A stretch of 64,000 nt of DNA from Bacillota bacterium (GTDB lineage Bacteria > Bacillota > UBA4882 > UBA10575): contig DATCJV010000037.1 in assembly GCA_036562625.1 (NCBI GenBank), positions 2,012-66,011 on the forward strand, given 5' to 3'. Shown here one piece after another: positions 3,558 to 55,847 of the stretch. Numbering within the stretch: the stretch's first letter is position 1; every line of letters begins with the position of its first letter. Below the pieces are notes generated by a model that worked only from the letters and a program-made list of their open reading frames with translations, did not search any database and was not told the DNA's origin. The position numbers and the translations under genes are program-made.

Positions 3558-3632
3558 TGGGGCGTCGCCAAGCGGTAAGGCACGGGACTTTGACTCCCGC
3601 ATGCGTTGGTTCGAATCCAGCCGCCCCAGCCA
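3558..3632 (+). tRNA. tRNA-Gln (anticodon TTG)
   Basis: Acceptor stem TGGGGCG/CGCCCCA, anticodon stem CGGGA/TCCCG with loop CTTTGAC, T-arm GTTGGTTCGAATCCAGC, and an encoded CCA. Confidence 0.9.
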
Positions 3633-10635: not shown

Positions 10636-11199
10636 ATGAAGGCAACTGGAATAGTCCGGAGAATCGATGACCTGGGCCGAGTGGTAATCCCCAAGGAAAT
10701 ACGGAGAACCCTCCGGATCAGAGAGGGAGATCCTCTGGAAATCTTTGTTGACCGCGAAGGAGAGGTAATTCTAAAAAAGTATTCGCCCATCGGTGAATTG
10801 GGGGACTTTGCCAAAGAATATGCGGAATCCCTGCATGAATCAACTGGACATATCGCCTTAATTGCCGACAGGGATATTGTGGTGGCGGTGGCGGGGGCTC
10901 CCAAAAAAGAGTTTTTAGATAAAGCAATCTCCAAGGCTGTGGAAAAGGCCATTGAAGACCGGAGAGTGGTTCTGATGCCTAAACCCGGGGATCATAAATA
11001 CTGTGAAACCTGTGCTGTTTTGGATGATGAAGGTGAGTGTGATTTTACCGCACAGGTTATAGCGCCGATCATTGCTGAAGGGGATCCCATTGGCGCAGTT
11101 ATATTAACCTCCAGGGAACCGGGTGTAGTCATGGGAGAAATGGAAGTCAAAATTGCTGAAACCGCCGCCGGGTTTCTGGCCAAACAGATGGAGCAGTAG
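10636..11199 (+). CDS. spoVT: Stage V sporulation protein T (AbrB-family regulator with GAF-like C-terminal domain)
   Basis: MKATGIVRRIDDLGRVVIPKEIRRTLRIREGDPLEIF is a SpoVT/AbrB swapped-hairpin N-terminus. The 187-aa length and position after mfd also fit. Confidence 0.9.
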   Translation: MKATGIVRRIDDLGRVVIPKEIRRTLRIREGDPLEIFVDREGEVILKKYSPIGELGDFAKEYAESLHESTGHIALIADRDIVVAVAGAPKKEFLDKAISKAVEKAIEDRRVVLMPKPGDHKYCETCAVLDDEGECDFTAQVIAPIIAEGDPIGAVILTSREPGVVMGEMEVKIAETAAGFLAKQMEQ

Positions 11200-17860: not shown

Positions 17861-19474
17861 ATGCTGGAATGTCGGTACGAACAGGTGAGAACAACTCAAG
17901 TTCTGGTCGCGGATGAACAGGTCGTTTTTTTAGAGGGTGAACTGGTCTTGCCTGATGTTTGCCGGGAAGTGCGGAAGATCTATTCCTGTCGGGGTTATCT
18001 GGGTGAAATCAGAGGCGAGCTTGACGGGAAGAGTCTGTCCCTTTCCGGGCAGGTTGAAGCGCACCTGACTTATGAAGGACAGACCGGGACGGAAGAGAGG
18101 CCAGAATATGGGTATACCTGGCAAGGACCAAATGCGATTGTTTTTGCAGAGAAGATTGTCTTACCTGAAGTCGCAAGCGGGCAGAACGTGGAGTGGGATT
18201 GGGACACGGAGCTTCTCGCTTTTTCCATGGAGGTTTTATCCGGGCGAAAGGTCAGGTTCCATGCGGAAGTGGGTGTAAAGTTTAAAGCAGGGGTGGAAAA
18301 AGCTCTCACCTACCTAAATAATCTGGAGACAGAAGCCAGGATTGAGACGGTTACAGAACGGATCGTCCCGGAAGAGTTGGTGGCAAGCGTTAAGGGTAGT
18401 AAAGAAGTGAACAATCAGTATCAAATATCCTATCCAAAGGCTCCGATTGCCAGAATTATTGGGAGTGATGCCAAACCGGTCGGGGTGAAGGCGGTTGCTT
18501 CCAAGGGACGAGTTACTATAGAGGGTTTTCTGGAGGTTAATGTGGTCTATGTTTCCCTGGGCGCCGATGGGGAGGAGAGCGGAGTTAAAGCAGTGAATTG
18601 GAATCAGCAAAACGGAGGAGCCCTTCCTTTCCAAATTGTTTTAGAGGAACCAAGGGCCCAAACAGAACAGGTCTCTTTTACCAGAGTCTGGGTGGAGTCT
18701 TTGACGCTGACTTCTCCTCATCCGGAGGTTTGTCGGTTGCAAGCTGTATTGGGAGCAAAGGCGGAACTGCTCAACACCCGGACTGTGCAAGTAATCGTAG
18801 AGGCCACCGTGGAAGCAGGGATTTTGGATGTCCTGCGCCAGGATTGTGAAGTAGAAGAAATTGTCGGCGAAGCGGAGAAGGTATTACGGCTGGAAAAGAA
18901 CCTGACTCTGCCTACAGAAAGCCCCAACCTCGAGGAGATACTGATGATCTCCTCTTCCCGGCCGCGGATAATTGAATGCCAAGCCGACACGGACCGGGTC
19001 TTTCTCGAAGGCGAAGTCTACTTCACCCTTCTTTATCTCGGTGAGGGAGAAACAGATGCCGTGTTGACGAGTGCGTTCTGGGGATCACGGAGCATGGATA
19101 AGGCCGTCTTCGGCGAATTTATTGATCTGCCGGGAGTAGAAGAAGGAATGTCCGCCTCAGTTTACCTGGAGGAAGACGGAATTGATCTGGAGATTATGGA
19201 TGAGCGTTCCGTAAAGGTAAGTGTTGCCTACCGGGTGCGAGTGACCGTGAAAGCCAAAAAAAGGCTCTCTGTAGTTCGGGACTGCGCCTTAGTTACCGAA
19301 GATGAACGACCCAAACCCAGTATGCTCTTTTATTTTGTGCAAAAAGGCGATAACTTGTGGAAAGTAGCCAGACGTTATAATACCACAATGAAAGCTATTG
19401 CCGAAGCTAATAACCTGCCGGAAGAGGAGGAATTGGTGGAAGGGAGAAAGCTGCTTATTCACATAAAGAGATAA
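17861..19474 (+). CDS. LysM and DUF3794/SPOCS-like protein (SipL/SpoVID-like spore coat morphogenesis candidate)
   Basis: C-terminal LysM YFVQKGDNLWKVARRYNTTMKAIAEANNL. The repetitive beta-rich N-terminal region resembles clostridial DUF3794-LysM proteins. Confidence 0.55.
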   Translation: MLECRYEQVRTTQVLVADEQVVFLEGELVLPDVCREVRKIYSCRGYLGEIRGELDGKSLSLSGQVEAHLTYEGQTGTEERPEYGYTWQGPNAIVFAEKIVLPEVASGQNVEWDWDTELLAFSMEVLSGRKVRFHAEVGVKFKAGVEKALTYLNNLETEARIETVTERIVPEELVASVKGSKEVNNQYQISYPKAPIARIIGSDAKPVGVKAVASKGRVTIEGFLEVNVVYVSLGADGEESGVKAVNWNQQNGGALPFQIVLEEPRAQTEQVSFTRVWVESLTLTSPHPEVCRLQAVLGAKAELLNTRTVQVIVEATVEAGILDVLRQDCEVEEIVGEAEKVLRLEKNLTLPTESPNLEEILMISSSRPRIIECQADTDRVFLEGEVYFTLLYLGEGETDAVLTSAFWGSRSMDKAVFGEFIDLPGVEEGMSASVYLEEDGIDLEIMDERSVKVSVAYRVRVTVKAKKRLSVVRDCALVTEDERPKPSMLFYFVQKGDNLWKVARRYNTTMKAIAEANNLPEEEELVEGRKLLIHIKR

Positions 19475-29117: not shown

Positions 29118-29194
29118 GGCGGTGTAGCTCAGATGGTCAGAGCATACGGTTCATACCCGTAGTGTCACTGGTTCGAATCCAGTCACCGCCACCA
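29118..29194 (+). tRNA. tRNA-Met (anticodon CAT), elongator-like
   Basis: GGCGGTGTAGCTCAGATGG..., anticodon loop TTCATAC, T-arm GGTTCGAATCC, encoded CCA. It lacks the initiator features (1-72 mismatch, GGG/CCC anticodon stem). A lysidine-modified tRNA-Ile2 cannot be excluded. Confidence 0.8.
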
Positions 29195-29197
29195 TCA

Positions 29198-29273
<76 letters not shown>

Positions 29274-31245: not shown

Positions 31246-31392
31246 ATGGTGTTAAGAAAAGAAGTAATACAACATCCAAGCTATTAAGGTTATGTAGAAG
31301 AAAAGAGCGGGGGAAAACTGAAGAAAGCATAAAGAAGTCATAAAGTTTGGCCGATAATAGATATGGGGAATCTTACGAAGGAGAGAAGGAAG

Positions 31393-31905
31393 ATGCATCT
31401 AGACGGCGTTCGCCAGGTCAGGTTGGTTAAGGATAAACCGAAAAGTCTTATCAACCGGACAGAGAATCGAAATCTAAGACGAAGAATATGCGAATCTGCG
31501 GTTTTGGAATTGGGTTCCCCTGATCTGCGCGAAACCGGCATCTATCATCTACAAATCATCAAAAACCCCAATCAATTCGGAAAACACCAAATAAATGATA
31601 GTAAAGTTGAGACCCTGCGCTCCATGGTGGAAAAAATGATATTTAAACAGGCTTTAGCAGGTTCGGAGGCGGAGGAAGAATATTGGAACGCCACTGCTAC
31701 CTCCCAAAGGGTCATTGAATTGGCAAAAACGCTGGCTATTGATGACCCGGACCAGGCCTACCAGATGAAAACAGGGTTTATTAAAGGTTTTCATGATGCG
31801 CAGGAGTTATATGGCAAAGCTCTTCCCCAGGTATGTACCGATACCTTAAGATTAACTACCGAGGCTTTTGATTCTTGGATTATTAAGGTTAAGAATAAAG
31901 AGTAA
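31393..31905 (+). CDS. Hypothetical protein, possibly DUF5610-like
   Basis: The ATG at 31393 is preceded by GAAGGAGAGAAGG; the ORF opens at 31363. The C-terminal pattern YWNATATSQRVIELA...GFIKGFHDAQELYGKALPQVCTDT...FDSW resembles DUF5610-type proteins as I recall them. Confidence 0.35.
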   Translation: MHLDGVRQVRLVKDKPKSLINRTENRNLRRRICESAVLELGSPDLRETGIYHLQIIKNPNQFGKHQINDSKVETLRSMVEKMIFKQALAGSEAEEEYWNATATSQRVIELAKTLAIDDPDQAYQMKTGFIKGFHDAQELYGKALPQVCTDTLRLTTEAFDSWIIKVKNKE

Positions 31906-31973
31906 GAGAGGAATTCTTTTCTTATTTACGGTTGAGTCCATCGACAAAAGGCAAGTTGTGCTTGTTACTAAAG

Positions 31974-31995
31974 GGACCGTCTACACAGACGGTCC
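31974..31995. terminator. Hairpin terminator between convergent genes
   Basis: GGACCGTC-TACACA-GACGGTCC. It lies between the plus-strand gene ending at 31905 and the minus-strand gene ending at 32060. Confidence 0.6.
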
Positions 31996-32059
31996 TTCAC
32001 TTATTAGTAAAAGAAACTATGTAAAGAAGAGAGTTGTCTAGGGCAAAGCAAATCAGATT

Positions 32060-34843
32060 TTATTCATGCAGAGGAAAATCCAAATCCTTTATTTCCTCTG
32101 CAGCTTTAGTTATGGTGATGATCTTTTCCTTGGTAACCAGTCCTTCAGGGAGAGATGAGGGATCCAGCACTAAACGGTAGGTTCCGGGGGTCAGCAGTAA
32201 ATAATAGTCTCCTTGTTGGCCGGTCATCACGGAGTATCTTCCGTCCACCGTCATCACCTTTACTCTGCGCAAAGGTTGATCCGGTTGATCATAAAGACCG
32301 TTTTGGTTTACGTCAATAAACACCCGGCCGGAGACAGAACCGACGATTTCTATACCCAGATCCACCGATTGGGTGGAGCCGGCGGTAACGGTCAGTAGTA
32401 AGTCTTCATTAACTGCCCGGTAATTAAGGGGTAAGGTAAAAATATTTATCCTGATGCGGCGAATCCCAGGCGGGATACGATGGAAGATAAACCTTCCCTG
32501 CGCATCTGTGGTGGCCAACGCAATGTCATCCACTGACACCTCGATTCCCGGGACGCCCTTTTCCTCTTCATCCATGAGGCCATTGGCGTTTTCATCCAGG
32601 AAGACCCGGCCGGAGATGTATCCGTCGTGAATACTTCTGCTTTTGTCTCCTGGGAGGAGTCCGTGGGGGGTAAAGGCAAAACCACCGTCAAGCTCAATGG
32701 AGATTTGGTATGATTCGACGTCTCCCACCGGAGAGCCGGGTTCATAATAATAATTACCGGCTATTCTAAAATAGGTTTCCGGAAAAATTTCTTTGTAATA
32801 TGACGTATATAAGGACCATTTTTTCCAAGTAAAATCATTCCTGGCGAGTGCACTGAGACCTACTCCCAGCCCGAGATAGGATGAGTCTTCATTTTTCTGC
32901 CAGAAGGTTAGGCTTAATCCGTTTTCTTGACTTTTATCCCCGTTCTCCCTTGCAGATTCGGAGAAGAGGTAAATAGAATACCGACGTTCAGCTTCCAAGC
33001 CAAGTCCTACTTTCAACCAGTAGTTATCCAAATGATATTCTTCCACTCCTGGCCCCGCTGCGGAGATGGTCTGCTCCTCTTCCCCAATCCAGCCAAATTC
33101 CAGACTTTGGTTAGAAAGACCTCCCGAGCGCCAGCTGAGTTCGGTCCGTTTATGCACCGTTTTGGGCTCATCTTCGGCGAAGCGGTTAGTTTTTCCGAAA
33201 AGACCCGTGATATGTCCTGAGAGCAAGGGAAAGGTCACTCCGGCTTCCCGGGTGGACAGTGATTCTCCTATAGTATTTTGGTCACTTTGATCCCGCTGAG
33301 CGCCACGTAAATAAACCAAGTAATTCCGTTGCGGTCGCCAGTAAGCCCCCAGCTCGTATTCGTTAACCCGGCCTTCTTCCGGTTTGGCGAAGACTGGACG
33401 GAAAGTCTCCGGTTGATAATAATATGAAGTTAAAAGCGTCGTACCTGGAAGTCCAAGGTTTAGTGAAGCACGCCCGGCTCTCCCCATGTCGGGCCCAACA
33501 AGCCAAGCCCTAGTGTCAAAGGTCAGGTTCGGGAGGAGTTGCCAATTAGAGAATTCGCTGACCTGCAGGATCTTATCGGAGTTATTTGTTTTTTCGATGG
33601 CTGCCAGATTGAGACCAACAGTGGCGTTAGAAAAGCCAACCAGCAGTTCGGAGACGGAGCTGAAGAGGTTTTTATGTGTATTATAAAAATTTTTTTCTTG
33701 GAATCCCAGAGAGGTTAAAAAGTGGATGGAGCCGGGTTTTACATAGTTATCCCGGGGGAGGAGGATCCACTTTTTTTCGTCAATCAATACCTCTCCCGCC
33801 TTTATCAATAGGCGCATTTTATGGCTTCTCCGGGGAACCAACCATAATTCGAAGACATACTCCCCGTCCTCCACGGTTTTAGTCTGATATAAGAGATCGT
33901 CCACCCAGAGCTCCACAGTGCAACCTGCCGGCGCCTGGCCATGAAGTAGAGGTTTCCGCTCCATATATAACGGGCGCCAATCAGGCGTGGCATAGGCAAC
34001 ACCTGTGGATTGCCAGCTGTAGGGATAGAAGGCGGCATAAGGCAGCTCCACAGTGCCCAGCTGCCAATAGCCCAAATCCGTCTCTTTTTTCCAAAGATAC
34101 TTGTAGAGATTAAAATTATAGTCATGGGTATTAAAGTCATACTTCATTGCACCGCCGATGCTTAATTGGCCACCTAGGATCGTGCCTCCGGTTTCCAAGG
34201 AGAGAACCGTGGTCAAGTTGGTGTAATCCGGAGGGGTGTAAAAGGAGTAATCCGAATAATTCAAATAAGATATGCGGTTAACCGGTTGAAAAGGGTCATG
34301 CTCAACAAGGGGTTCTTTAGAATCCGGTTCTTTCTCTTCAAGTAGAGCGGAGTTAGGCAATCCCCACAGAGAAATCTCCAACTGTGAAGAATTCCATAAG
34401 GCGGAAGCACCTGTTAAGATCTGAAAATTGCTCAAAGACATAAAGTATTCATCGCGTACGGGAAACCAATAGCCTTTAACGGGGACTTTAACTCCTGCCA
34501 GGTCCAGTAAATCTTCCTTTATGTACAGGTAGTTGATTTTCTCACGATGGTGCGCTGTGCTGATTGCCCAGCTGTCTTCCTGAGCGGACACTTCATATCC
34601 ACAGTAAAGTGCGAGGGCGCGGATGGGCACATAAGGTTCTTCCTTGATCAGGACTTCAAGAAGAGCTGAGCAGGAAGGGAAGAGGAAAAGGACGATTGAA
34701 AAGTCATTTTCCTTTTTTATCTCCGTGAAGTTGAGAGGAACAAAGATCCCTCCGGTTTGCCCTTTAGCCGTTTGATAAGACAGAGACAGTGAGCTGATTA
34801 ACAAGCAGAGTAGTAAAACGTTTTTTTCCTTCAATGGGCTCAC
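32060..34843 (-). CDS. Large secreted outer-membrane protein, usher-like (candidate fibre-assembly platform) with two C-terminal SdrD-B/Cna-B-like domains
   Basis: Signal peptide LLLCLLISSLSLSYQTA. A long Tyr/Trp/Gly-rich beta-strand region follows. Residues ~261-356 (LGTVELPYAAFYPYSWQSTGVAYATPDW...HGQAPAGCTVELWVDDLLYQTKTVEDGEYVFELW...MRLLIKAGE) parallel the PapC/FimD barrel-plug consensus. The C-terminus has two GRVF.D.N.NG..D beta-sandwich repeats. The GTG start lies 3 nt after the upstream stop. Confidence 0.45.
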   Translation of the reverse strand: MSPLKEKNVLLLCLLISSLSLSYQTAKGQTGGIFVPLNFTEIKKENDFSIVLFLFPSCSALLEVLIKEEPYVPIRALALYCGYEVSAQEDSWAISTAHHREKINYLYIKEDLLDLAGVKVPVKGYWFPVRDEYFMSLSNFQILTGASALWNSSQLEISLWGLPNSALLEEKEPDSKEPLVEHDPFQPVNRISYLNYSDYSFYTPPDYTNLTTVLSLETGGTILGGQLSIGGAMKYDFNTHDYNFNLYKYLWKKETDLGYWQLGTVELPYAAFYPYSWQSTGVAYATPDWRPLYMERKPLLHGQAPAGCTVELWVDDLLYQTKTVEDGEYVFELWLVPRRSHKMRLLIKAGEVLIDEKKWILLPRDNYVKPGSIHFLTSLGFQEKNFYNTHKNLFSSVSELLVGFSNATVGLNLAAIEKTNNSDKILQVSEFSNWQLLPNLTFDTRAWLVGPDMGRAGRASLNLGLPGTTLLTSYYYQPETFRPVFAKPEEGRVNEYELGAYWRPQRNYLVYLRGAQRDQSDQNTIGESLSTREAGVTFPLLSGHITGLFGKTNRFAEDEPKTVHKRTELSWRSGGLSNQSLEFGWIGEEEQTISAAGPGVEEYHLDNYWLKVGLGLEAERRYSIYLFSESARENGDKSQENGLSLTFWQKNEDSSYLGLGVGLSALARNDFTWKKWSLYTSYYKEIFPETYFRIAGNYYYEPGSPVGDVESYQISIELDGGFAFTPHGLLPGDKSRSIHDGYISGRVFLDENANGLMDEEEKGVPGIEVSVDDIALATTDAQGRFIFHRIPPGIRRIRINIFTLPLNYRAVNEDLLLTVTAGSTQSVDLGIEIVGSVSGRVFIDVNQNGLYDQPDQPLRRVKVMTVDGRYSVMTGQQGDYYLLLTPGTYRLVLDPSSLPEGLVTKEKIITITKAAEEIKDLDFPLHE

Positions 34844-34846
34844 CCC

Positions 34847-35686
34847 TTACTCGGCATTAACTTCAAAAGCGGTAGTATGCTTTATACCGGTGTTGCCCGG
34901 TTCCAAACCATATTCTGCCAGATCGCCCGCATATAACGGCGGGACAAAGGAAAACTCACTCTCTACATGGTAGAGACCGGGAGGAAGTTCCAGAGGCAAC
35001 TGGCTGGTGAAAAAGCGGGATCTGCCTGGAAAGACTACATTTCCTTTGTAAAAGCCTTCACCTAAGACCGTTTTATTTCCGTCGAGCACCTTAAACCTTC
35101 CAGTGCAGCGTAGATGGGCGTTGCCACTGGAGTTGATTTTACACCTGAGTTGCAAGCCGTTATCTTTGCAATAATCGATGAAGACTTCTTCCAAGGAACC
35201 GCGTCTCGTTACGGGTGGGGTGTATCCATAGATAGTGACCAGAATGTTACTGACCATTGTCAGAGCGGTTTCCTCCACCGGTTCGCCGGCAAAGAGAATG
35301 GCGCACCGGTGTTCTCCAGCAGGCGCCTGAGCGGGGGGGGTAAGGCTAAATCTTACTACTTGCCGGGCTCCGGGCGCCAATTGAAAAAGGCGGGGATTAA
35401 ATCGCAACCAGGTGGCACAAGAGCTGGATGCCTCTCCAGGTATGGTAAATAGAGGATTTCCCTCTTCATCCATTTCCCAATCCCGGACATCTACCCCGAT
35501 CCGTAATGTGTCTGTACCATTATTAAGTATAGTAATGGCTTGAGTTTCTACTTTACCCGGAGTGAGCAATAGTTCAAAACGGGAGGGTTGGATAATTAAT
35601 TGGGTGGTACTTTGGCCGCTGGTGGAAAATAATAATGTAAGAAGCAAAATACCCAGAGAAGAGAGGATTTTTCTTTTCTGCTTCAT
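34847..35686 (-). CDS. Periplasmic two-domain Ig-fold protein, PapD-like chaperone candidate (alternative: DUF916-like)
   Basis: Signal peptide ILLLTLLFSTSGQS. LIIQPSRFELLLTPGKVETQAITILNNGTDTLRIGVDVRDW...FNPRLFQLAPGARQVVRFSL...EHRCAILF follows the PapD_N pattern (tRvi...v.N.g...v.v..w...vtPPlfrl.pg..q.lRi...Esl). RBS GGAGGT lies 7 nt upstream. Confidence 0.45.
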   Translation of the reverse strand: MKQKRKILSSLGILLLTLLFSTSGQSTTQLIIQPSRFELLLTPGKVETQAITILNNGTDTLRIGVDVRDWEMDEEGNPLFTIPGEASSSCATWLRFNPRLFQLAPGARQVVRFSLTPPAQAPAGEHRCAILFAGEPVEETALTMVSNILVTIYGYTPPVTRRGSLEEVFIDYCKDNGLQLRCKINSSGNAHLRCTGRFKVLDGNKTVLGEGFYKGNVVFPGRSRFFTSQLPLELPPGLYHVESEFSFVPPLYAGDLAEYGLEPGNTGIKHTTAFEVNAE

Positions 35687-35766
35687 GTCCTTACCTCCAG
35701 AGTGGTTTCTCCGTATACAATACCCGGCTTACATGGAAAAGGTTAGCAGAAAGGATCTAAGGGAAA

Positions 35767-35788
35767 GAGGCGGACCGAAGTCCGCCTC
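35767..35788 (-). promoter_or_regulatory. Intra-operon stem-loop after the small subunit gene (partial terminator or mRNA stabiliser candidate)
   Basis: On the minus strand, GAGGCGGAC-TTCG-GTCCGCCTC (9-bp GC-rich stem, UUCG tetraloop) is followed by TTTCCCTT. It lies in the 108-nt gap between the subunit and chaperone-like genes. Confidence 0.5.
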
Positions 35789-35794
35789 TTCGGG

Positions 35795-36376
35795 TTATTC
35801 TTGATACGCAGTGAAGTATACGGCAAAGCTGTACTTTCCGGGGGTGGTCGTGCTGTCCACCACACCGCGGAACTGATAACTTCCCAATTCTTGGCCGTCG
35901 TTACCGGTTGGTCCGGCGGCGTCCCAAATTGGGGTCATACTCCAGACATTTAAGGGTTGCCAATTGTCACTGTCGGTTTTCCGGTATTCGAAACCCAACC
36001 TATTTTCCTGGTCGATCTGGTTTTCAAATTTGCTTTGCCTAGCGGTCCGTACGACATAATCGGTGCGGCCGATCCGGGCGGCCCAGGGGGCATTGGAGTA
36101 TACCCAGACCTCGTACGCGCGGCTTTCCACGTAGGTTGCCTCTTGTCCGGGAACGGGAGTGACCTCTTTTCTAAAGGAATCGGTTAGGACTCCACCCGGA
36201 AGCCAATCATTGGAAACGTCCTTAACTCCGTTAACACTAAGGATGAGTAAAGGTCTGACGATTAGTTCGGCTGGAACGAAAACAGTAGCATCGACTTTGT
36301 GACCTTGGGCAAAGGCCGGCGCCGCGGCCAGGCAAATTAAGAGGAGAAGAATGAGTAGAATGTGAGTGGCCTTCAT
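35795..36376 (-). CDS. Small secreted beta-rich protein, candidate major fibre subunit (WxL/SCPU-like C-terminal motif)
   Basis: Signal peptide LLILLLLICLAAAPAFA-QG, no Cys in the mature part, and motifs VWVYSNAPW and TTTPGKYSFAVYFTAY. A perfect RBS AAAGGAGGTGA precedes the start. The ATG overlaps the upstream TGA (TGATG). Confidence 0.45.
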   Translation of the reverse strand: MKATHILLILLLLICLAAAPAFAQGHKVDATVFVPAELIVRPLLILSVNGVKDVSNDWLPGGVLTDSFRKEVTPVPGQEATYVESRAYEVWVYSNAPWAARIGRTDYVVRTARQSKFENQIDQENRLGFEYRKTDSDNWQPLNVWSMTPIWDAAGPTGNDGQELGSYQFRGVVDSTTTPGKYSFAVYFTAYQE

Positions 36377-37227
36377 CAATAGTCACCTCCTTTCGGCAAA
36401 AGCTCTTCCTGTGCAGGAAGAACGGAAAAACGTAGATAAAAAGGATAATCACCAGCCCGCAGAGGGGCAGAAGGGGCTTTCTGCCAATCCAGGACCAGCC
36501 GGTGGTCTCCTCCTGCTTCGCCTCGAGCCAAACAAATTATTTGGTTGGGTAAAACCAAAACTGGAGTGGAGGATAGAAAGTGAGTTGCCGCCGAGTGGTA
36601 CAGGCTGTTACAGACCAAAGCCAGGTTTTCGTGGGACTTCGTTACTTCCACTTGTAACACCCAGGGGGCATTAGCGTGGATTTGTAACGAAAGCTGCCTG
36701 TCCACATGGTGATCATCTGTAATGTGTAGACGGCGGAAGGATTGAGGCGTGATCACGGCCAAAAAGGGGACTTTTAGTTTGAGCAGTTCCCTCTGGATGA
36801 TTCTCTCCTGACCGGTGATCTCTAATATAATGTTTATGGGTACTTCATAGAGACCAGGGGTGGTCATCCAGTCAAACTTCCAGATTAAAGGGATCCTTTG
36901 CCAACGTGCCCCTTTTCCTGATACTTCCTGTCCTAAAGGAGAGGTAATCTGATGATCTTCTGATGAAATCTCCCATTGCAGCCTCCAACAGGTGTCGGCC
37001 ACCACTTCAACAAGGAGTTCTCCTCTGGCTGTGATCAGGGAACTCGTGATACCGGAGGGTAGAGGATCCAAGCGAAAAAGATCCGAAGAGATCTTTAGGA
37101 AGGCCTCGCGGGGAGCGGCCAGAGAAGAGCAGCCCAGAAAAAGCAGGGTGGCTAGAACCGATACGAGCAGGTGGTGTCGTATACACGTCCATGTACACGC
37201 CTCACCTTTCTGTCCATTTGTTTTCAA
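36376..37227 (-). CDS. Two-module secreted/lipoprotein candidate paralogous to the small subunit (minor subunit or tip protein candidate)
   Basis: The ORF opens at ATG 37329, but the nrdJ terminator lies inside that extension. The TTG at 37227 has GGGGGT 6 nt upstream and yields MKTNGQKG...LLVSVLATLLFLGC, a lipobox-like signal. Two internal modules each carry a W.L motif and a G.Y...hydrophobic C-terminal strand. Confidence 0.4.
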   Translation of the reverse strand: MKTNGQKGEACTWTCIRHHLLVSVLATLLFLGCSSLAAPREAFLKISSDLFRLDPLPSGITSSLITARGELLVEVVADTCWRLQWEISSEDHQITSPLGQEVSGKGARWQRIPLIWKFDWMTTPGLYEVPINIILEITGQERIIQRELLKLKVPFLAVITPQSFRRLHITDDHHVDRQLSLQIHANAPWVLQVEVTKSHENLALVCNSLYHSAATHFLSSTPVLVLPNQIICLARGEAGGDHRLVLDWQKAPSAPLRAGDYPFYLRFSVLPAQEELLPKGGDY

Positions 37228-37285
37228 GTTTTTACCCCCAATTTTGAATCTAAAAAAGTCTATGTAATTTAACAGATAATATGAC

Positions 37286-37310
37286 AAAAAAAATAACAGG
37301 GTTAACCCTG
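37286..37310 (-). terminator. Rho-independent terminator of nrdJ
   Basis: On the minus strand, CAGGG-TTAA-CCCTG is followed by TTATTTTTTTT, 36 nt after the nrdJ stop codon. Confidence 0.55.
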
Positions 37311-37345
37311 CTAGAAAGAGTAAGATCATTAGCTTTATAAAGTAT

Positions 37346-43537: not shown

Positions 43538-44629
43538 ATGAAACGCATCATAGCACTAGTCTTAGCAACATTAATGTTAACCGTCGTCTCTCCGGTGGTG
43601 TTCGCCGCTGAACTGGATTTCTCCGGAAAAATTACTTCTCAAATCGGTTACTATAAAATCGATGAGGATAGAGAAGATCTTCCTTCATATTTCCACGGCG
43701 ACTCCACCTTCTCGCTCAGCGCTTCTTTGGGTGAGAATCTCACCGCCGGTCTTTCTCTGAGCGGACTGGAACACATCTTCGGTGAACCGTGGACTGAAGA
43801 TATTTCTGTTGAAGACAGGGCTCAGAAGTTTCTTGATTTAGAAAGTGTCTGGTTGGAAGCCAAAGGCTCCATCTTTCCCGGCGCTCCTGCCATGACCACC
43901 CGGTTAGGCGGATTGAACACCAACTACTCTCCTTATATCGCCGACCTGGACAACGCCGGTGGTGTAAACGGAATCAGCGTTGACAATATCAACATCGGTC
44001 CGGTCTCCGTTGGCGCTTTCTATGGCTGGAATAACAAGCGGGAGGACAAGGGCGCGCAAATCAGAATCAATCCTAACGAACAAGTAGAAGTCAAGGGGAC
44101 CGTAGTCGAAGCCGACCAGCTCTACTACGAAGTTGCTGGAAAGGTCATCCCCGTGCAGAACCTGGAATTCGCCGCCACCTATGCTGCGGGTGAAAACGAA
44201 GAAAATGCTTTACTAGTCGAAGGGCAGTTGCGGGTAACCGAGAACACGACAGTTCGAGCCGGATACCGGAAAGTCACTGAGAACTTTGTGGATACTTCCG
44301 TATATGCCAATGAAGACGACATTCCAGTGGACAACGGGGAAGAAGGATTCAGTGTCGGCGCCACCACAAAACAGCTTGGTTTCGAATTGGCCGGAGATTA
44401 TCACCTGTATAGCGACAGCGTCGAGTTCTCTGCCGCTCGTGGGATTACTCTGGCCGGTATGAACTTTAACACTAAACTTGAAGGTGAATACGGTATAGAA
44501 GATTCCGAGATGCTCGCTTTGGATGCGACTATTGGCTATGCTGCTCCGAACGGGATGACCATCTCCGCCGGATATGATTTCGTCTATGAGCATCCCACCT
44601 TCACAGCTGGTTTATCAATGGCTTTCTAA
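43538..44629 (+). CDS. Outer-membrane beta-barrel protein (porin-like)
   Basis: Signal peptide LVLATLMLTVVSPVVFA-AE, alternating-hydrophobic beta strands throughout, and a C-terminal beta-signal-like TFTAGLSMAF ending in Phe. A strong RBS AAGGAGGA precedes it and a strong terminator follows. Confidence 0.55.
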   Translation: MKRIIALVLATLMLTVVSPVVFAAELDFSGKITSQIGYYKIDEDREDLPSYFHGDSTFSLSASLGENLTAGLSLSGLEHIFGEPWTEDISVEDRAQKFLDLESVWLEAKGSIFPGAPAMTTRLGGLNTNYSPYIADLDNAGGVNGISVDNINIGPVSVGAFYGWNNKREDKGAQIRINPNEQVEVKGTVVEADQLYYEVAGKVIPVQNLEFAATYAAGENEENALLVEGQLRVTENTTVRAGYRKVTENFVDTSVYANEDDIPVDNGEEGFSVGATTKQLGFELAGDYHLYSDSVEFSAARGITLAGMNFNTKLEGEYGIEDSEMLALDATIGYAAPNGMTISAGYDFVYEHPTFTAGLSMAF

Positions 44630-47254: not shown

Positions 47255-47977
47255 TTATCCTCGGGAACTATCGCCATAAACAGGAGTAAAATTACTTTCA
47301 GAATTGGAGTAGGGATAAGGCATCCTATAGAACTCTCTAACCGCTTGCAGCAGACTGTTGCTGATCAGTTCCGACATTTTCATCACCAGGCTCAAGCGGG
47401 TATTCTGCAGCACCAGATACTCCATGAACCCTCCAACATTGACTACACCAATAATGTGAAAGTTGCCAACCTCCGGCAGGGTTTTATTCACCCCGGTACC
47501 GGGTTGTAGAGGACCCGGCTTGATGCTGATGCAGCCGATGCTTTCCGACTTCCCCAAACAGGCGTCGATTGCAATGACCGGCGTTTGCGGGTCTTCGGTG
47601 GAGATCTTGTTCAGTGTTTCCTCCAGATTAACCGCGTGAACCGGATTATCTAAAGTACCATAGACTTTAATGTTGGGAAGGTTGGCTGCAGTTAATCTTG
47701 AACCAATGAGCGGTCCCAGGCTGTCGCCGGTCGAGCGGTCAGTGCCGATACATAGAACAGTCAGGTAATTGCCGGCTGCAGTCAATGTTTGATCCGGAAA
47801 GGAAGACGGTCTTTTATAAAAAGGATTCTCATCATAAACGCGGTTTAAATAGATCTTCAAATGTTTTGTAATCAGTGCTTGAGCTTCTGGATGGTTTATA
47901 TGGACTCGGTAAGGAAAGAGACTGTGAAGATCCGAGGTTTTTTTGTAAAATGGAAACCACATCGGTTTGACATCCAC
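47255..47977 (-). CDS. yyaC: Sporulation protein YyaC (GPR-like spore protease family)
   Basis: CIGTDRSTGDSLGPLIGSRL, YGTLDNPVHAVNL, VIAIDACLG and IIGVVNVGGFMEYLVLQNTRLSLVM align by eye with B. subtilis YyaC. Confidence 0.85.
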   Translation of the reverse strand: MDVKPMWFPFYKKTSDLHSLFPYRVHINHPEAQALITKHLKIYLNRVYDENPFYKRPSSFPDQTLTAAGNYLTVLCIGTDRSTGDSLGPLIGSRLTAANLPNIKVYGTLDNPVHAVNLEETLNKISTEDPQTPVIAIDACLGKSESIGCISIKPGPLQPGTGVNKTLPEVGNFHIIGVVNVGGFMEYLVLQNTRLSLVMKMSELISNSLLQAVREFYRMPYPYSNSESNFTPVYGDSSRG

Positions 47978-51441: not shown

Positions 51442-52410
51442 TTGAAGCATAAGTATAAGCATATTGGGCTGGCGGTACTGACTGTGATGATTGGGATTAC
51501 AGTCTCCTTCATCGGTTGTCCCGGACCGGAACGGAAGATTTTTGACCGGATCGCCAGAAAGCTGGCTGAGGAACCTCAAGTCTCTGTTTATTTTCACGAA
51601 TCCAAGACTAAAAAGACCATGCCTATTGAGGAATATCTGCTTGGAGTGGTCGCCGGTGAAATGGAGAAAGGGTGGCCGCTAGAGGCCTATGCCGCTCAAG
51701 CCATTGTCGCCCGTACTTTTACTATGGACTTTATTGCGCAGGGCGGCACCAGAAAACAGCATAATACTGATATCTCTACGGACGAGGTAGAAGCTCAGGC
51801 CTATAACGCTGAAGCAATCACCCCAATCATCAGACGGGCGGTACAGATGACCAAGGGAAAGGTTATAACTTACCGCAATCGATATGTAAAGGGATGGTTC
51901 TCCGCCAGTTGCGGAGGGAGAACCGCTTTAGCCAGAGAAGGGTTGGGCTATAAGGGAAAAGAGCCTCCTTATATGCGATCCGTATCGTGTCCGGAGGAAA
52001 AAGTCATTCCCAAGGAAGAATTGTATTGGAAAGCCACTTTAACTTCTGCAGAGATGGCGGAAGCCCTCAAGAAGTTGGGAAAGTCCATTGGAACCATTCA
52101 ACGGCTGGAAGTAGAGGAGAGGAGTAAACAATCTCATAGGGCGACAAAGTTAAATTTTATCGGTACGGAGGGGCGCGCCACTGTCCTGGGCGCGGATTTC
52201 CGCGTAGCATTAGATCCGCAAAAGGTTCGTTCAATATGGATTACGGATATTAATAACAAGAGTACCGGTATTGAGTTGAAAGGGCGCGGATATGGCCATG
52301 GAGTCGGCCTCTGTCAATGGGGAGCCCATGCTCTGGCCAAGGAAGGAAAATCTCCAGAAGAAATCATCAAGCATTATTATCCGTTGGCGGAGATTAAGGA
52401 TCTTTGGTAA
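51442..52410 (+). CDS. spoIID: Stage II sporulation protein D (SpoIID/LytB-domain lytic transglycosylase)
   Basis: EEYLLGVVAGEM...EAYAAQAIVARTF, WFSASCGGRT, and GRGYGHGVGLCQWGA near the C-terminus. TTG start follows GAGGGGAGAAGG. Confidence 0.85.
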   Translation: MKHKYKHIGLAVLTVMIGITVSFIGCPGPERKIFDRIARKLAEEPQVSVYFHESKTKKTMPIEEYLLGVVAGEMEKGWPLEAYAAQAIVARTFTMDFIAQGGTRKQHNTDISTDEVEAQAYNAEAITPIIRRAVQMTKGKVITYRNRYVKGWFSASCGGRTALAREGLGYKGKEPPYMRSVSCPEEKVIPKEELYWKATLTSAEMAEALKKLGKSIGTIQRLEVEERSKQSHRATKLNFIGTEGRATVLGADFRVALDPQKVRSIWITDINNKSTGIELKGRGYGHGVGLCQWGAHALAKEGKSPEEIIKHYYPLAEIKDLW

Positions 52411-53035: not shown

Positions 53036-54715
53036 ATGGCACGCAGAGGAAGGCAAGGTGTTTTCCTTGTTATATGTTTATTACTGGTTTTTATTCTGAA
53101 CGCAGGGGTCACATGGTCGGCCTTGGAAATAACCGATACCGGGGCGGAAAGTCGTTTTGGGAAGGTAAAGGCCCCGCCTCGTCCTTTACGGTGGAAGGTT
53201 CTGAAAACTGCTCATTTTGAGATCTACTTTTATCAGGGTATGGAAGAGTTGGTGATGCGTTGCCGAGATATTTTGGAAAATGAAGCTTATGAGCGCATAT
53301 ACCCGGATTTTGAAAGTTTTTACGCTCTTCACCCCTATAAAAAGATCAGGGTCATCATTTTTACCTCAAGAAAGGAGTATCAGAACTCCCGTGCGAACGG
53401 GCTCCCACTTTCGACCACCTCCGAGGGGGTGGCCAACATCCTGAACAATCGGATTGTGGCCATTCGCCAACCAACCTTCCAGGATTTAAGATGTGTCTTA
53501 ACACATGAAGTGACGCACTTGATTACTTTAGGCAATAGATCGGCTTTATCCTCTTCGTTAGGGGGGCAAGTACCGGGCTGGATGGCCGAGGGATTGGCAG
53601 AATTCTATGAACCGGAAGACACCAGGTTTTTCATGCGTGAGGTCGCCTTAAGAGACGCGGTGCTTCGTGAGGAGTTGCATACTTTATCCCATCTGGAACA
53701 GATCGGGGGCAACCTGGACTATGCAGAGGCATGGTCGTTGGTGGATTATATCGCCCGTGTCCATGGTAAGGATAAGCTGCCCGAGTTGCTGATGGAAATG
53801 TTTAAACGGGGAAACAGGGATACAACCTATGAACGGACCTTGGGTCTTAGTAAACAGGAGCTGTGGGAGAACTGGAAGACGGATTTGGAGAAACGTTATG
53901 TGGCAGGAAAGGATAATCCCAGTATAAAACAGGAACACCTTCCTTTGATCGAAGGTTACGGTCACCAACAGGATCCAAAGATCGATCGGAACGGCCGGGT
54001 ATTTTTCCTCTCTACGCATCAGAGTAAATTTTTCGACCTTTATATGTGGACACCGGATGGGTGTCGACGGTTGACCGAACAAACCGTTATCACCTACGAC
54101 ATAGCCCCGGACGGGCAAGAAGTAATCTTTATCTCCGATTCAGATGGGGAACGTAACTTATACAAGCTGGAGATTGAGTCCGGAAAAATCACTCCGTTCC
54201 CTATGGATTTGGCAAACCCGGTTGATCTGGCTTGGTCTCCCCAAGGAGACAAACTGGCCGTAGCTGTGAATACCAGAGGCGATACGGATTTATTCATCAT
54301 CGATCTTCAGGGAAGGGTCTTGATGAAGGTGGCGGCCGGCTCTACGGATGAACGCGCGCCGGCCTGGGCGCCTGATGGAGAGAGACTCGTCTATATGCTG
54401 ACCAGATTAGGCCGTCACCAACTGATGATCTGGGATGGAGAAACAAGTCGACCTTTGACCGTCCCGGATCGTGACTACTTGGAGCCGTTTTGGGGGACGG
54501 ATGATTTTATCTGGTGTATTACCGGAGAAAACGGTTATTACCAGGCGGTGGCTATTGATCCGGAAGACGGTGAGGTTCATCAGGTTTCCGGCTTTCAAGA
54601 AACACTCTTGCATGCCGTCCCGGCGCCGGATGGGCAAATTCTGTCCGACGTCTACACCGGACAGGAGACCAAGATATATTTCTGGACGCCGCAGGAGGTG
54701 AAGTCCAATGAGTAG
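53036..54715 (+). CDS. Secreted zinc metallopeptidase (MA clan, HExxH) fused to a TolB-like PD40 beta-propeller
   Basis: Signal peptide, HExxH in LTHEVTHLI with downstream GWMAEGLAEFYE, then PD40-like repeats (DGQEVIFISDSDGERNLYKLE, WSPQGDKLAVAVNTRGDTDLFIID, PAWAPDGERLVYM). Confidence 0.6.
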   Translation: MARRGRQGVFLVICLLLVFILNAGVTWSALEITDTGAESRFGKVKAPPRPLRWKVLKTAHFEIYFYQGMEELVMRCRDILENEAYERIYPDFESFYALHPYKKIRVIIFTSRKEYQNSRANGLPLSTTSEGVANILNNRIVAIRQPTFQDLRCVLTHEVTHLITLGNRSALSSSLGGQVPGWMAEGLAEFYEPEDTRFFMREVALRDAVLREELHTLSHLEQIGGNLDYAEAWSLVDYIARVHGKDKLPELLMEMFKRGNRDTTYERTLGLSKQELWENWKTDLEKRYVAGKDNPSIKQEHLPLIEGYGHQQDPKIDRNGRVFFLSTHQSKFFDLYMWTPDGCRRLTEQTVITYDIAPDGQEVIFISDSDGERNLYKLEIESGKITPFPMDLANPVDLAWSPQGDKLAVAVNTRGDTDLFIIDLQGRVLMKVAAGSTDERAPAWAPDGERLVYMLTRLGRHQLMIWDGETSRPLTVPDRDYLEPFWGTDDFIWCITGENGYYQAVAIDPEDGEVHQVSGFQETLLHAVPAPDGQILSDVYTGQETKIYFWTPQEVKSNE

Positions 54716-55847
54716 ACATGTGCTCATTAAATTTTGGAAAATACTCTTTCTTCTTCTGCCTGTATTTCTGCTCTTTCCTGCAGAGAGTGGAGCGGAGGAT
54801 GATCCGCCCTGGGAGAGTTATCGTCCGAAACTGGAAATGGAGATGCTTTACCCCGTTCTATATTATGATGAGCAAGACGGGTTTTTGGGCCTGCTTTATG
54901 GACAGATGAGTGATGTCTTACGCGAACATGATTTACGATTTATTTTTTATATCAATGAGTGGGATGACGAAGCGCAGTATGTGGTGGGATACACTAGGCA
55001 CCTCGGACTGTGGTCTATAGGAGCCAACCTCTACTCGGGGCCTGTTTATTTAGGTTGTCTTTGGTCTCCGGGCTTTTCTGAATACCAAAATGGACTGAGT
55101 CTGCTCGCTAGTTATCATTGGAATAATGAATCACGCATAGATTTTCGTCTGCAATGGGAGAAGTTTGAAACAAAGGCCTATTCTTTGGTTCTGAAAGATC
55201 TACCGGAAGATGGGAAGGTTGTCGGGTGGGATATTACCTTGAATCAGGATACTCATGACTTGCTCGCGCAGAATGGAACCAGGCAGTATCTAAGTGTAGG
55301 CGGGGCATTCCCCATTTTCGGCACAGATTACGATTATTTGAAGATTGAAGGGGACCACCGCAGCTACCATCCACTGGGGAAGAGATTGTCCTTGATTTGG
55401 AGCGCGCGGGCGGGTAAGATTTGGGGAGATTATCCTTCACACCGGGGGTTTTTAGTAGGAGGAATTCAGCATACCAGTGCTAGCGCTCTTGGTAGCCTGA
55501 TTAATACGGGCCTTTTAGGTTTTCTCTCCGATTCCGTGTTGCGGGGATACGACACAGACGCCTTTGTGGGTGACTCCTTTGTCATCTCCAATTTGGAATT
55601 AAGGGGATTGCTCTGGCCTGGTGACTACTATAACATTGGCGGTTTTGCCTGTATCAGTTCTTTATTTATTGATGCGGGCCAAATTTGGCGTCAGCAAAAG
55701 CAGTTAGCCTCCAAACCACCGGCCGCCTATGGCGTTGGGCTAAAGTTTTTGATTCTGCGTGGATTGATGTTGGGCATCGATTATGCGGTGCCTTTTGATC
55801 CGGGAGAGGATGCTAAATGGCATTTTAGTTTGGGAGAAGTTTTCTAA
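54708..55847 (+). CDS. Omp85-family outer-membrane beta-barrel without POTRA domains
   Basis: Signal peptide FLLLPVFLLFPAESGA, the loop-6-type motif VLRGYD, and a C-terminus GIDYAVPFDPGEDAKWHFSLGEVF ending in Phe. The ATG overlaps the upstream gene by 8 nt, and GGAGGTG lies 8 nt upstream. Confidence 0.6.
   Translation: MSRHVLIKFWKILFLLLPVFLLFPAESGAEDDPPWESYRPKLEMEMLYPVLYYDEQDGFLGLLYGQMSDVLREHDLRFIFYINEWDDEAQYVVGYTRHLGLWSIGANLYSGPVYLGCLWSPGFSEYQNGLSLLASYHWNNESRIDFRLQWEKFETKAYSLVLKDLPEDGKVVGWDITLNQDTHDLLAQNGTRQYLSVGGAFPIFGTDYDYLKIEGDHRSYHPLGKRLSLIWSARAGKIWGDYPSHRGFLVGGIQHTSASALGSLINTGLLGFLSDSVLRGYDTDAFVGDSFVISNLELRGLLWPGDYYNIGGFACISSLFIDAGQIWRQQKQLASKPPAAYGVGLKFLILRGLMLGIDYAVPFDPGEDAKWHFSLGEVF

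Follow-up and report, generated by a model that had tools for sequence, protein, structure and literature searches.

A minus-strand operon of four genes, called g1 to g4 here in order of transcription, occupies positions 32060-37329 of a 64,000-nucleotide (nt) stretch of contig DATCJV010000037.1 (hereafter the window), from an organism labelled “Bacillota bacterium” in the NCBI entry for its g3 protein. The operon probably assembles a surface polymer by a chaperone-usher mechanism, in a very divergent form. Two of its products carry this reading: g3, which by sequence profile and structure model is homologous to pilus chaperones as well as to WxLIP, a protein of WxL cell-surface clusters, and g4, whose homology to fimbrial ushers is remote by profile comparison, yet specific. 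The g3-g4 variant of the pathway is new, yet it is shared with uncharacterized DUF4402 clusters of Proteobacteria. An earlier note, made from the letters of the window, had proposed a chaperone-usher-like operon, and the present analysis supports it; neither of the outcomes that the note had named as damaging (a g3 protein unlike PapD-like or DUF916 folds together with a soluble or non-barrel g4, or a failure of the four genes to recur together) was found.

The operon and its parts are as follows (window positions).

37294..37313, minus strand: intrinsic terminator of nrdJ, an 8-bp stem with a run of eight Ts; upstream boundary of the operon
36376..37227, minus strand: g1, 283 amino acids (aa), exported, two modules; open reading frame (ORF) with TTG start, as in public gene calls
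35795..36376, minus strand: g2, 193 aa, secreted, beta-rich, mature part without Cys; ATG within the TGATG overlap
35764..35791, minus strand: hairpin after g2, 12-bp GC-rich stem with UUCG loop
34847..35686, minus strand: g3, 279 aa, predicted periplasmic chaperone with two immunoglobulin-like (Ig) domains, PapD / WxLIP superfamily; from model, Foldseek and profiles
32060..34843, minus strand: g4, 927 aa, usher-like predicted outer-membrane protein; from ORF, start context and family profile
34373..34651, minus strand: N-terminal domain of g4 (residues 65-157), similar to that of copper amine oxidase (Pfam Cu_amine_oxidN1) and not canonical PapC_N
33383..34465, minus strand: usher-aligning stretch of g4 (residues 127-487), by profile alignment to FimD 129-491
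33758..33946, minus strand: plug-like beta-sandwich of g4 (residues 300-362), after about six amphipathic strands; from model and profile alignment
32063..32611, minus strand: SdrD_B / CarboxypepD_reg beta-sandwich pair (Pfam) at the C-terminus of g4 (residues 745-927), in the position of the usher C-terminal domains CTD1/CTD2
31973..31996, minus strand: hairpin GGACCGTC...GACGGTCC downstream of g4, read from the sequence, putative end of the operon

Word-indexed homologue searches with g3, g4 and the g4 family alignment yielded close relatives only; the g3 family emerged by exhaustive search, which returned 3,459 representative relatives (clusters at 50% identity), 550 of them at E ≤ 1e-10. 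The structure model of g3, built on a 78-sequence alignment, has a predicted local distance difference test score (pLDDT) of 95.2 and consists of a signal helix followed by two beta-sandwich domains, resembling solved two-Ig-domain chaperones. A Foldseek search of the PDB with this model placed E. faecium WxLIP first (9i25, E 3e-11), followed by CfaA, CsuC, Caf1M, FimC, EcpB and DraB (E 1e-10 to 1e-7), the pilus-chaperone matches having template modelling scores, normalised by target length, of 0.53-0.62. Against PDB sequences, the g3 family profile found WxLIP over its full length (3e-7) and EcpB (1e-4). In profile-profile comparison the best match was to the chaperones of the proteobacterial DUF4402 clusters (99.2%, E 1e-19), followed by WxLIP (97.8%, E 8e-13, both domains) and EcpB/EcpE (94.6%, E 7e-8), with classical FimC/YadV far behind (7%, E 0.005) and reversed sequences, the controls, at E ≥ 0.17. 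WxLIP and the pilus chaperones each match the g3 family and, as small profiles, do not match one another.

PapD_N (PF00345) weakly matches 5 of the 78 g3-family members, WxLIP_PGBD 21 and WxLIP_HBD 2; the window's own g3 matches neither WxLIP domain, and has no match to PapD_N at the membership threshold. With g3 alone, tblastn finds genes annotated “fimbria/pilus periplasmic chaperone,” and some family members are labelled “molecular chaperone” or “P pilus assembly chaperone PapD” in NCBI, UniRef or JGI. Arg36, in strand A (PSRFE), is invariant across the family alignment, at what we take to be the position of PapD Arg8. The two-domain protein with a PapD_N-like pattern that had been read from the sequence is borne out by model and fold search, and its similarity to PapD-like and to DUF916 folds is significant both by profile and by structure.

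Since the best PDB match of g3, by sequence and by fold, is WxLIP, one possibility is that g3 acts as a WxLIP-like scaffold, holding g1, g2 and an adhesin g4 on the peptidoglycan with no outer-membrane usher involved. The WxLIP_PGBD matches would suit this, as would the Firmicute host and the gene order of WxL loci: in Enterococcus, Bacillus thuringiensis and Lactiplantibacillus (loci L028 3179-6942, L029 4925-6876 and L030 5170-6900) a small WxL gene lies immediately upstream of WxLIP. However, WxLIP proteins are defined by a C-terminal transmembrane helix (PMC10599100), and g3 ends in ...AFEVNAE, with no hydrophobic end segment in the sequences aligned across its family; an N-terminal signal, no anchor and an adjoining g4 gene are what a secreted, soluble chaperone should have. 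No WxL domain (PF13731) was matched in g1, g2, g4 or their families, the g2 family reaching E 0.17 against a profile of five WxL proteins, and no LPXTG gene or sortase accompanies them. The specific usher match of g4, an Omp85 gene in the window and the occurrence of the family in diderm lineages and Proteobacteria also speak against a wall-bound complex, which we regard as very unlikely. The earlier note had offered kinship with WxL/DUF916 clusters as its alternative: the kinship stands for g3, and the alternative does not, since pilus chaperones and WxLIP are both homologues of the g3 family. A purely WxL-type reading was rejected on the missing anchor, the missing WxL domain and the usher homology of g4.

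That usher homology was found with a g4 family alignment of 14 sequences, assembled from neighbour genes in related loci. Its profile matches FimD plus HtrE at 96.4% (E 1.2e-9), with 344 columns in colinear register (g4 127-487 against FimD 129-491), at about 17% identity; the aligned stretch takes in, one after another, the tail of the N-terminal domain, the initial strands of the barrel, the plug and the strands that follow it. Reversed or shuffled ushers gave E ≥ 0.23 in the same comparison. FhuA and BamA gave about 0.2, and a TonB-dependent or Omp85-type barrel was rejected on that ground. The plug region (residues 300-362) aligns with the FimD plug and, at 94.8%, with a 660-aa Pseudoalteromonas protein, and is the only confident part of the g4 model, a beta-sandwich with pLDDT 72-76. 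A crude amphipathicity scan places about six strands before the plug and about 18 after it.

The ends of g4 belong to other families than PapC_N and PapC_C, at equivalent positions. Pfam detects SdrD_B (E 2e-14) in two C-terminal stretches (SdrD_B / CarboxypepD_reg, residues 745-920), a pair that all 14 family members keep; the match to Cu_amine_oxidN1, weak in the window's g4 (E 0.006), is found in 11 of the 14 (best E 4e-16). With an N-terminal domain, about six strands, a plug, about 18 strands and two beta-sandwiches, the domain order of g4 mirrors that of an usher, and we infer a barrel topology for it. Weak Pfam matches to Porin_4, DUF2490, OMP_b-brl and CooC_C also occur in some family members. 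An usher plug-like segment and two C-terminal beta-sandwich domains had both been claimed for g4, and both can now be placed on it.

Several results weigh against a chaperone-usher reading. Pfam and NCBIfam scans of the single g3 sequence gave nothing useful, with no chaperone threshold reached, and no match to Pfam Usher (PF00577), PapC_N or PapC_C appeared at E ≤ 1 in g4 or 13 relatives. The usher alignment is limited to residues 127-487, so that 344 of 927 residues align; a profile of residues 1-735 matched no PDB sequence, EcpC alone did not match the g4 family profile, and the Polaromonas homologues of g4 by themselves gave no match to classical ushers. The g4 model, made from five close homologues, has pLDDT 29 and leaves the barrel unconfirmed; Foldseek found nothing significant with it, the usher middle domain of Caf1A (3fcg) staying below threshold at E 0.13. 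Searches with profiles of g1 and g2 detected no similarity to Pfam, PDB, FimA-type pilins, EcpA, DUF4402 or WxL, and the outer-membrane status of the host is based on one gene and the taxonomy of relatives. Two checks that the earlier note had proposed came out divided: PF00577 fails on g4 where remote profile homology to FimD/HtrE succeeds, and no 24-strand barrel was modelled, the usher homology nevertheless being colinear through the plug.

Taken at their strongest, the failed Pfam Usher and PDB sequence matches and the unusable model might mean that the usher likeness is due to chance or convergence, g4 being an unrelated outer-membrane protein or adhesin and g3 a generic Ig-fold partner. 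Against this stand a colinear match at E 1e-9 with all controls negative, the same pairing with a genuine PapD_N chaperone in Proteobacteria, and the strict adjacency of g3 and g4 in genomes that are very far apart. We consider coincidence extremely improbable, the least credible of the explanations discussed here.

The proteobacterial counterpart is an unrecognized one. Matches of g3 in tblastn include genes on plasmids that are annotated as pilus chaperones, in clusters located as follows (DUF4402/PapD_N-chaperone clusters, proteobacterial plasmids).

L031, 4160-9501
L032, 4214-9479
L022, 4885-9625

Polaromonas clusters consist of a DUF4402 gene, a hypothetical gene, another DUF4402 gene, a chaperone gene and a gene for a “carboxypeptidase-like regulatory domain protein” of about 896 aa; in Pseudoalteromonas this last product is divided between two proteins, one of 660 aa and the other a CarboxypepD_reg protein. 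The homology of g4 to the Polaromonas 896-aa protein is full-length (99.6%, E 4e-24, 789 columns). Both of the DUF4402-cluster chaperones that were scanned, from Polaromonas JS666 and Pseudoalteromonas (the profile holds three), pass the PapD_N cut-off. Proteobacterial and Deinococcus homologues of g4 gave no Pfam Usher match at E ≤ 0.1, and these large proteins are not annotated as ushers. Judged from homology, then, the g3-g4 system is not Firmicute-specific: it belongs to a wider class that includes Proteobacteria, where only the chaperone has been annotated.

Do the four genes travel together? They recur in at least 12 other loci with differing flanking genes, as a co-occurrence survey suggested in the earlier note would have them do. 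The order g1-type, g2-type, g3, g4-type is found in loci L005, L007-L010, L014, L016-L018 and L019; two Deinococcus loci (L021, L023) have the module in slightly different order, and two short contigs (L012, L015) hold it in part. A locus scan with a narrow alignment returned two genome loci and three metagenome loci. In every locus with enough sequence the gene directly after g3 is of g4 type (880-1090 aa), at g3 identities among module loci as low as about 24%, and relatives of g3 occur in Limnochordia, Halothermotrichaceae, Halanaerobiales, Deinococcus and Candidatus Aerophobetes. One metagenomic contig (L019, 1-10493) carries two complete copies in tandem, so this lineage has duplicated the whole system.

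The gene calls of the window are matched by independent ones: public contigs encoding an identical 279-aa protein have genes of 283, 193, 279 and 927 aa. The TTG start of g1 at 37227 sits behind a GGGGG ribosome-binding site, and the 283-aa call is preferred over a 317-aa ORF extending to 37329 because the latter would cross the nrdJ terminator. An AGGAGG site precedes the g2 ATG, which overlaps the g1 stop (TGATG); g2 and g3 are 108 nt apart, and g3 and g4 either 3 nt (GTG start) or 12 nt (TTG at 34834), the TTG being better placed and perhaps the true start. All four products have a hydrophobic, signal-like N-terminal segment, modelled as a helix in g3 and g4. Downstream of g4, the hairpin at 31973-31996 was not called by the terminator scan, its T tail being weak. 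The layout described in the earlier note (four co-directional minus-strand genes of these lengths adjoining the nrdJ terminator, one TGATG overlap, gaps of 108 nt and, with the GTG start, 3 nt, and an export signal on every product) is confirmed throughout.

The first two genes are candidates for the subunits of the polymer. On profile evidence g1 and g2 are new protein families (alignments of 11 and 12 sequences, respectively): g1 matched nothing in Pfam or NCBIfam, and the nearest approach of g2 to a known subunit is to the DUF4402 profile (7.5%, E 0.005), in the last strand only and with no Pfam DUF4402 match in the g2 family. They are related to one another, g2 matching the N-terminal module of g1 at 91% (E 1e-6) and its C-terminal half at 87% (E 4e-6), with the two halves of g1 at 65%; the claim of a shared module therefore has moderate profile support, invisible though it is to BLAST. 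Conserved in the g2 family are a C-terminal strand (PGxYxxxVxFxA) and, at the N-terminus, a strand in which hydrophobic residues alternate, with Pro after it. The latter, ATVFVPAELIVRP in the window, is a possible donor strand, and would fit a donor-strand pilin. We consider g2 a candidate major fibre subunit and g1 a candidate minor subunit or tip adhesin. A lipobox had also been reported for g1. LFLGC is indeed present in the window copy, and its Cys is gone in L008 (LLFMGGYS; the g3 of this locus is 91% identical to that of the window) and in the remaining homologues; a signal-peptidase I type site, SLA↓AP, is conserved instead, and the lipoprotein assignment was rejected.

Immediately 3′ of the g2 stop is a hairpin of -23.4 kcal/mol (z-score -5.25). 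A strong hairpin stands at the same site in 11 of 11 other loci tested (12 of 12 with the window), often with a U tract, in unrelated sequences. It is a candidate attenuator or mRNA stabilizer that would raise the ratio of subunit to machinery, and its conservation fits g2 as a major subunit produced in excess. A hairpin following the presumed major-subunit gene recalls the arrangement behind papA.

The way in which such a system might work can be sketched from these parts. Sec would export all four products into the periplasm of a Bacillota cell with an outer membrane, where soluble g3 would cap, by donor-strand complementation, the incomplete folds of g2 (major) and of two-module g1 (minor subunit or tip adhesin). 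In the outer membrane, g4 would form a beta-barrel with a plug; its N-terminal domain would serve for docking on the periplasmic side, and two beta-sandwiches would make up its C-terminus. Subunits would polymerize at g4 through donor-strand exchange, by way of the alternating N-terminal strand of g2, and be threaded to the surface, with the hairpin behind g2 holding subunit mRNA above that for chaperone and usher. The product of donor-strand complementation and exchange would presumably be a fibre. Another possibility is that usher-like machinery makes something else: a thin, Caf1-like amorphous or capsule-like layer, a coat on the surface of the cell or the spore, resembling the spore coat protein U systems of Myxococcus, or surface monomers. 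The same homology evidence underlies both products, the subunits are a new family unlike rod-forming pilins, and the host sporulates; sequence does not separate such a product from a fibre, and the g2 strand and the hairpin suit any polymer. We think a non-pilus product unlikely, if a good deal less so than a wall-bound complex of WxL type, and continue to favour a chaperone-usher surface polymer.

For g4 to be an usher, an outer membrane is needed. It is made plausible by an Omp85-family gene in the window (54708-55847, plus strand; 379 aa; Pfam 58 bits, E 1.5e-15, above threshold), whose product has a signal peptide and ends in ...SLGEVF; its start overlaps the 3′ end of a gene for a Peptidase_MA_2 and PD40 protein (53036-54715, plus strand). 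On this basis, and from the taxonomy of the relatives of g3, the host lineage seems to be diderm. That it sporulates had been stated earlier, correctly by the following window genes.

10636-11199: spoVT
17861-19474: SipL-like (SPOCS + LysM)
47255-47977: yyaC
51442-52410: SpoIID-domain gene

The layout of the stretch that starts at ispE, passes glmU, ctc, pth and mfd and ends at spoVT is typical of Bacillota. Elsewhere in the window, a 180-aa ORF (31363-31905, plus strand) is convergent with g4, has no Pfam family, and is kept at 170-172 aa in relatives; a 363-aa ORF (43538-44629, plus strand) is also of no Pfam family, and both ORFs keep their positions in related contigs. RNA genes at 86-349, 3558-3629 and 29118-29270 include the large bacterial signal recognition particle RNA and three tRNA genes, and at gathering thresholds no riboswitch was found upstream of nrdJ. 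The Candidatus Aerophobetes locus (L014, 14563-16825) encodes, some 2.7 kb downstream of its usher-like gene, a protein with a weak match to SlpA_C, the OmpM/SlpA-type outer-membrane tether domain; between the two genes lies one for a subtilisin-like protease, on the other strand.

Chaperone-usher pili are the textbook Gram-negative assembly pathway, and a divergent, conserved version in sporulating diderm Bacillota extends its host range. It also exposes an annotation gap, in that current profile libraries miss the usher and the subunits of this lineage, and it suggests candidate adhesion or biofilm fibres in anaerobic-digester bacteria. For mechanistic work, g4 is of interest as a new usher architecture, its two terminal domains being of other kinds. 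As a sequence bridge from pilus chaperones to WxLIP, g3 bears on how the surface was remodelled when Firmicutes lost the outer membrane. A tentative extension, which we hold to be possible and somewhat doubtful, is that the module represents an ancient chaperone-usher lineage in its Terrabacterial form, and that the WxL/WxLIP clusters of Gram-positive Firmicutes evolved from it: on loss of the outer membrane the usher may have been lost, and the chaperone may have gained an anchor to become WxLIP, with strand insertion retained for wall display. The scenario is suggested by the matches of the g3 family to WxLIP (E 8e-13) and to pilus chaperones (E 1e-19 and 7e-8) alike, and by the order common to both, a small subunit gene followed by that of an Ig-fold partner. 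If true, it would give the diderm-to-monoderm transition a concrete trace at the molecular level.

Classical and alternative chaperone-usher systems are known from beta- and gamma-Proteobacteria, and archaic ones from Proteobacteria, Cyanobacteria and Deinococcus-Thermus (PMC4654587), in agreement with the distribution given in the earlier note. Our literature search met no description of a system such as this one for Firmicutes (Negativicutes, Limnochordia, diderm Firmicutes) or for Deinococcus; it also found nothing on DUF4402, and nothing tying WxLIP to pilus chaperones or WxL to a donor strand.

Comparison with known systems brings out what is shared and what is not. WxL clusters (WxLIP being DUF916 + DUF3324) have in common with the operon the homology of g3 over both domains, the phylum, and a small subunit gene directly upstream of an Ig-fold partner, as in g2 then g3. 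They differ in the transmembrane helix that g3 does not have and in their WxL domains, LPXTG protein and sortase; moreover, g4 is usher-like and not a WxL adhesin, and the hosts of the operon appear to be diderm. Classical Fim/Pap systems (FimD, HtrE, PapC) resemble it in the colinear alignment, overall length and domain order of g4. Here too there are differences: identity is about 17% over the 344 of 927 g4 residues that align, g3 is nearer to non-classical chaperones, and g2 is unlike FimA-type pilins.

Archaic and alternative pathways (Csu of Acinetobacter; CFA/I and ECP of E. coli) share the order of subunits, two-Ig chaperone and large outer-membrane protein. The fold of g3 is close to those of CfaA and CsuC (E about 1e-10), and its profile matches EcpB/EcpE far above FimC/YadV. 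Unlike them, g4 falls outside Pfam Usher, with Cu_amine_oxidN1-like and SdrD_B / CarboxypepD_reg ends replacing PapC_N and PapC_C; the subunits are not of the SCPU, CblD or Fimbrial families, and the host is a sporulating member of the Bacillota. With the proteobacterial DUF4402 clusters there are differences as well, their subunits being DUF4402 proteins, with which g2 shares the last strand at most, and their scanned chaperones reaching a PapD_N threshold that the window's g3 does not. It is nevertheless with these clusters that the operon can be grouped, by gene order and by full-length homology of both machinery proteins.

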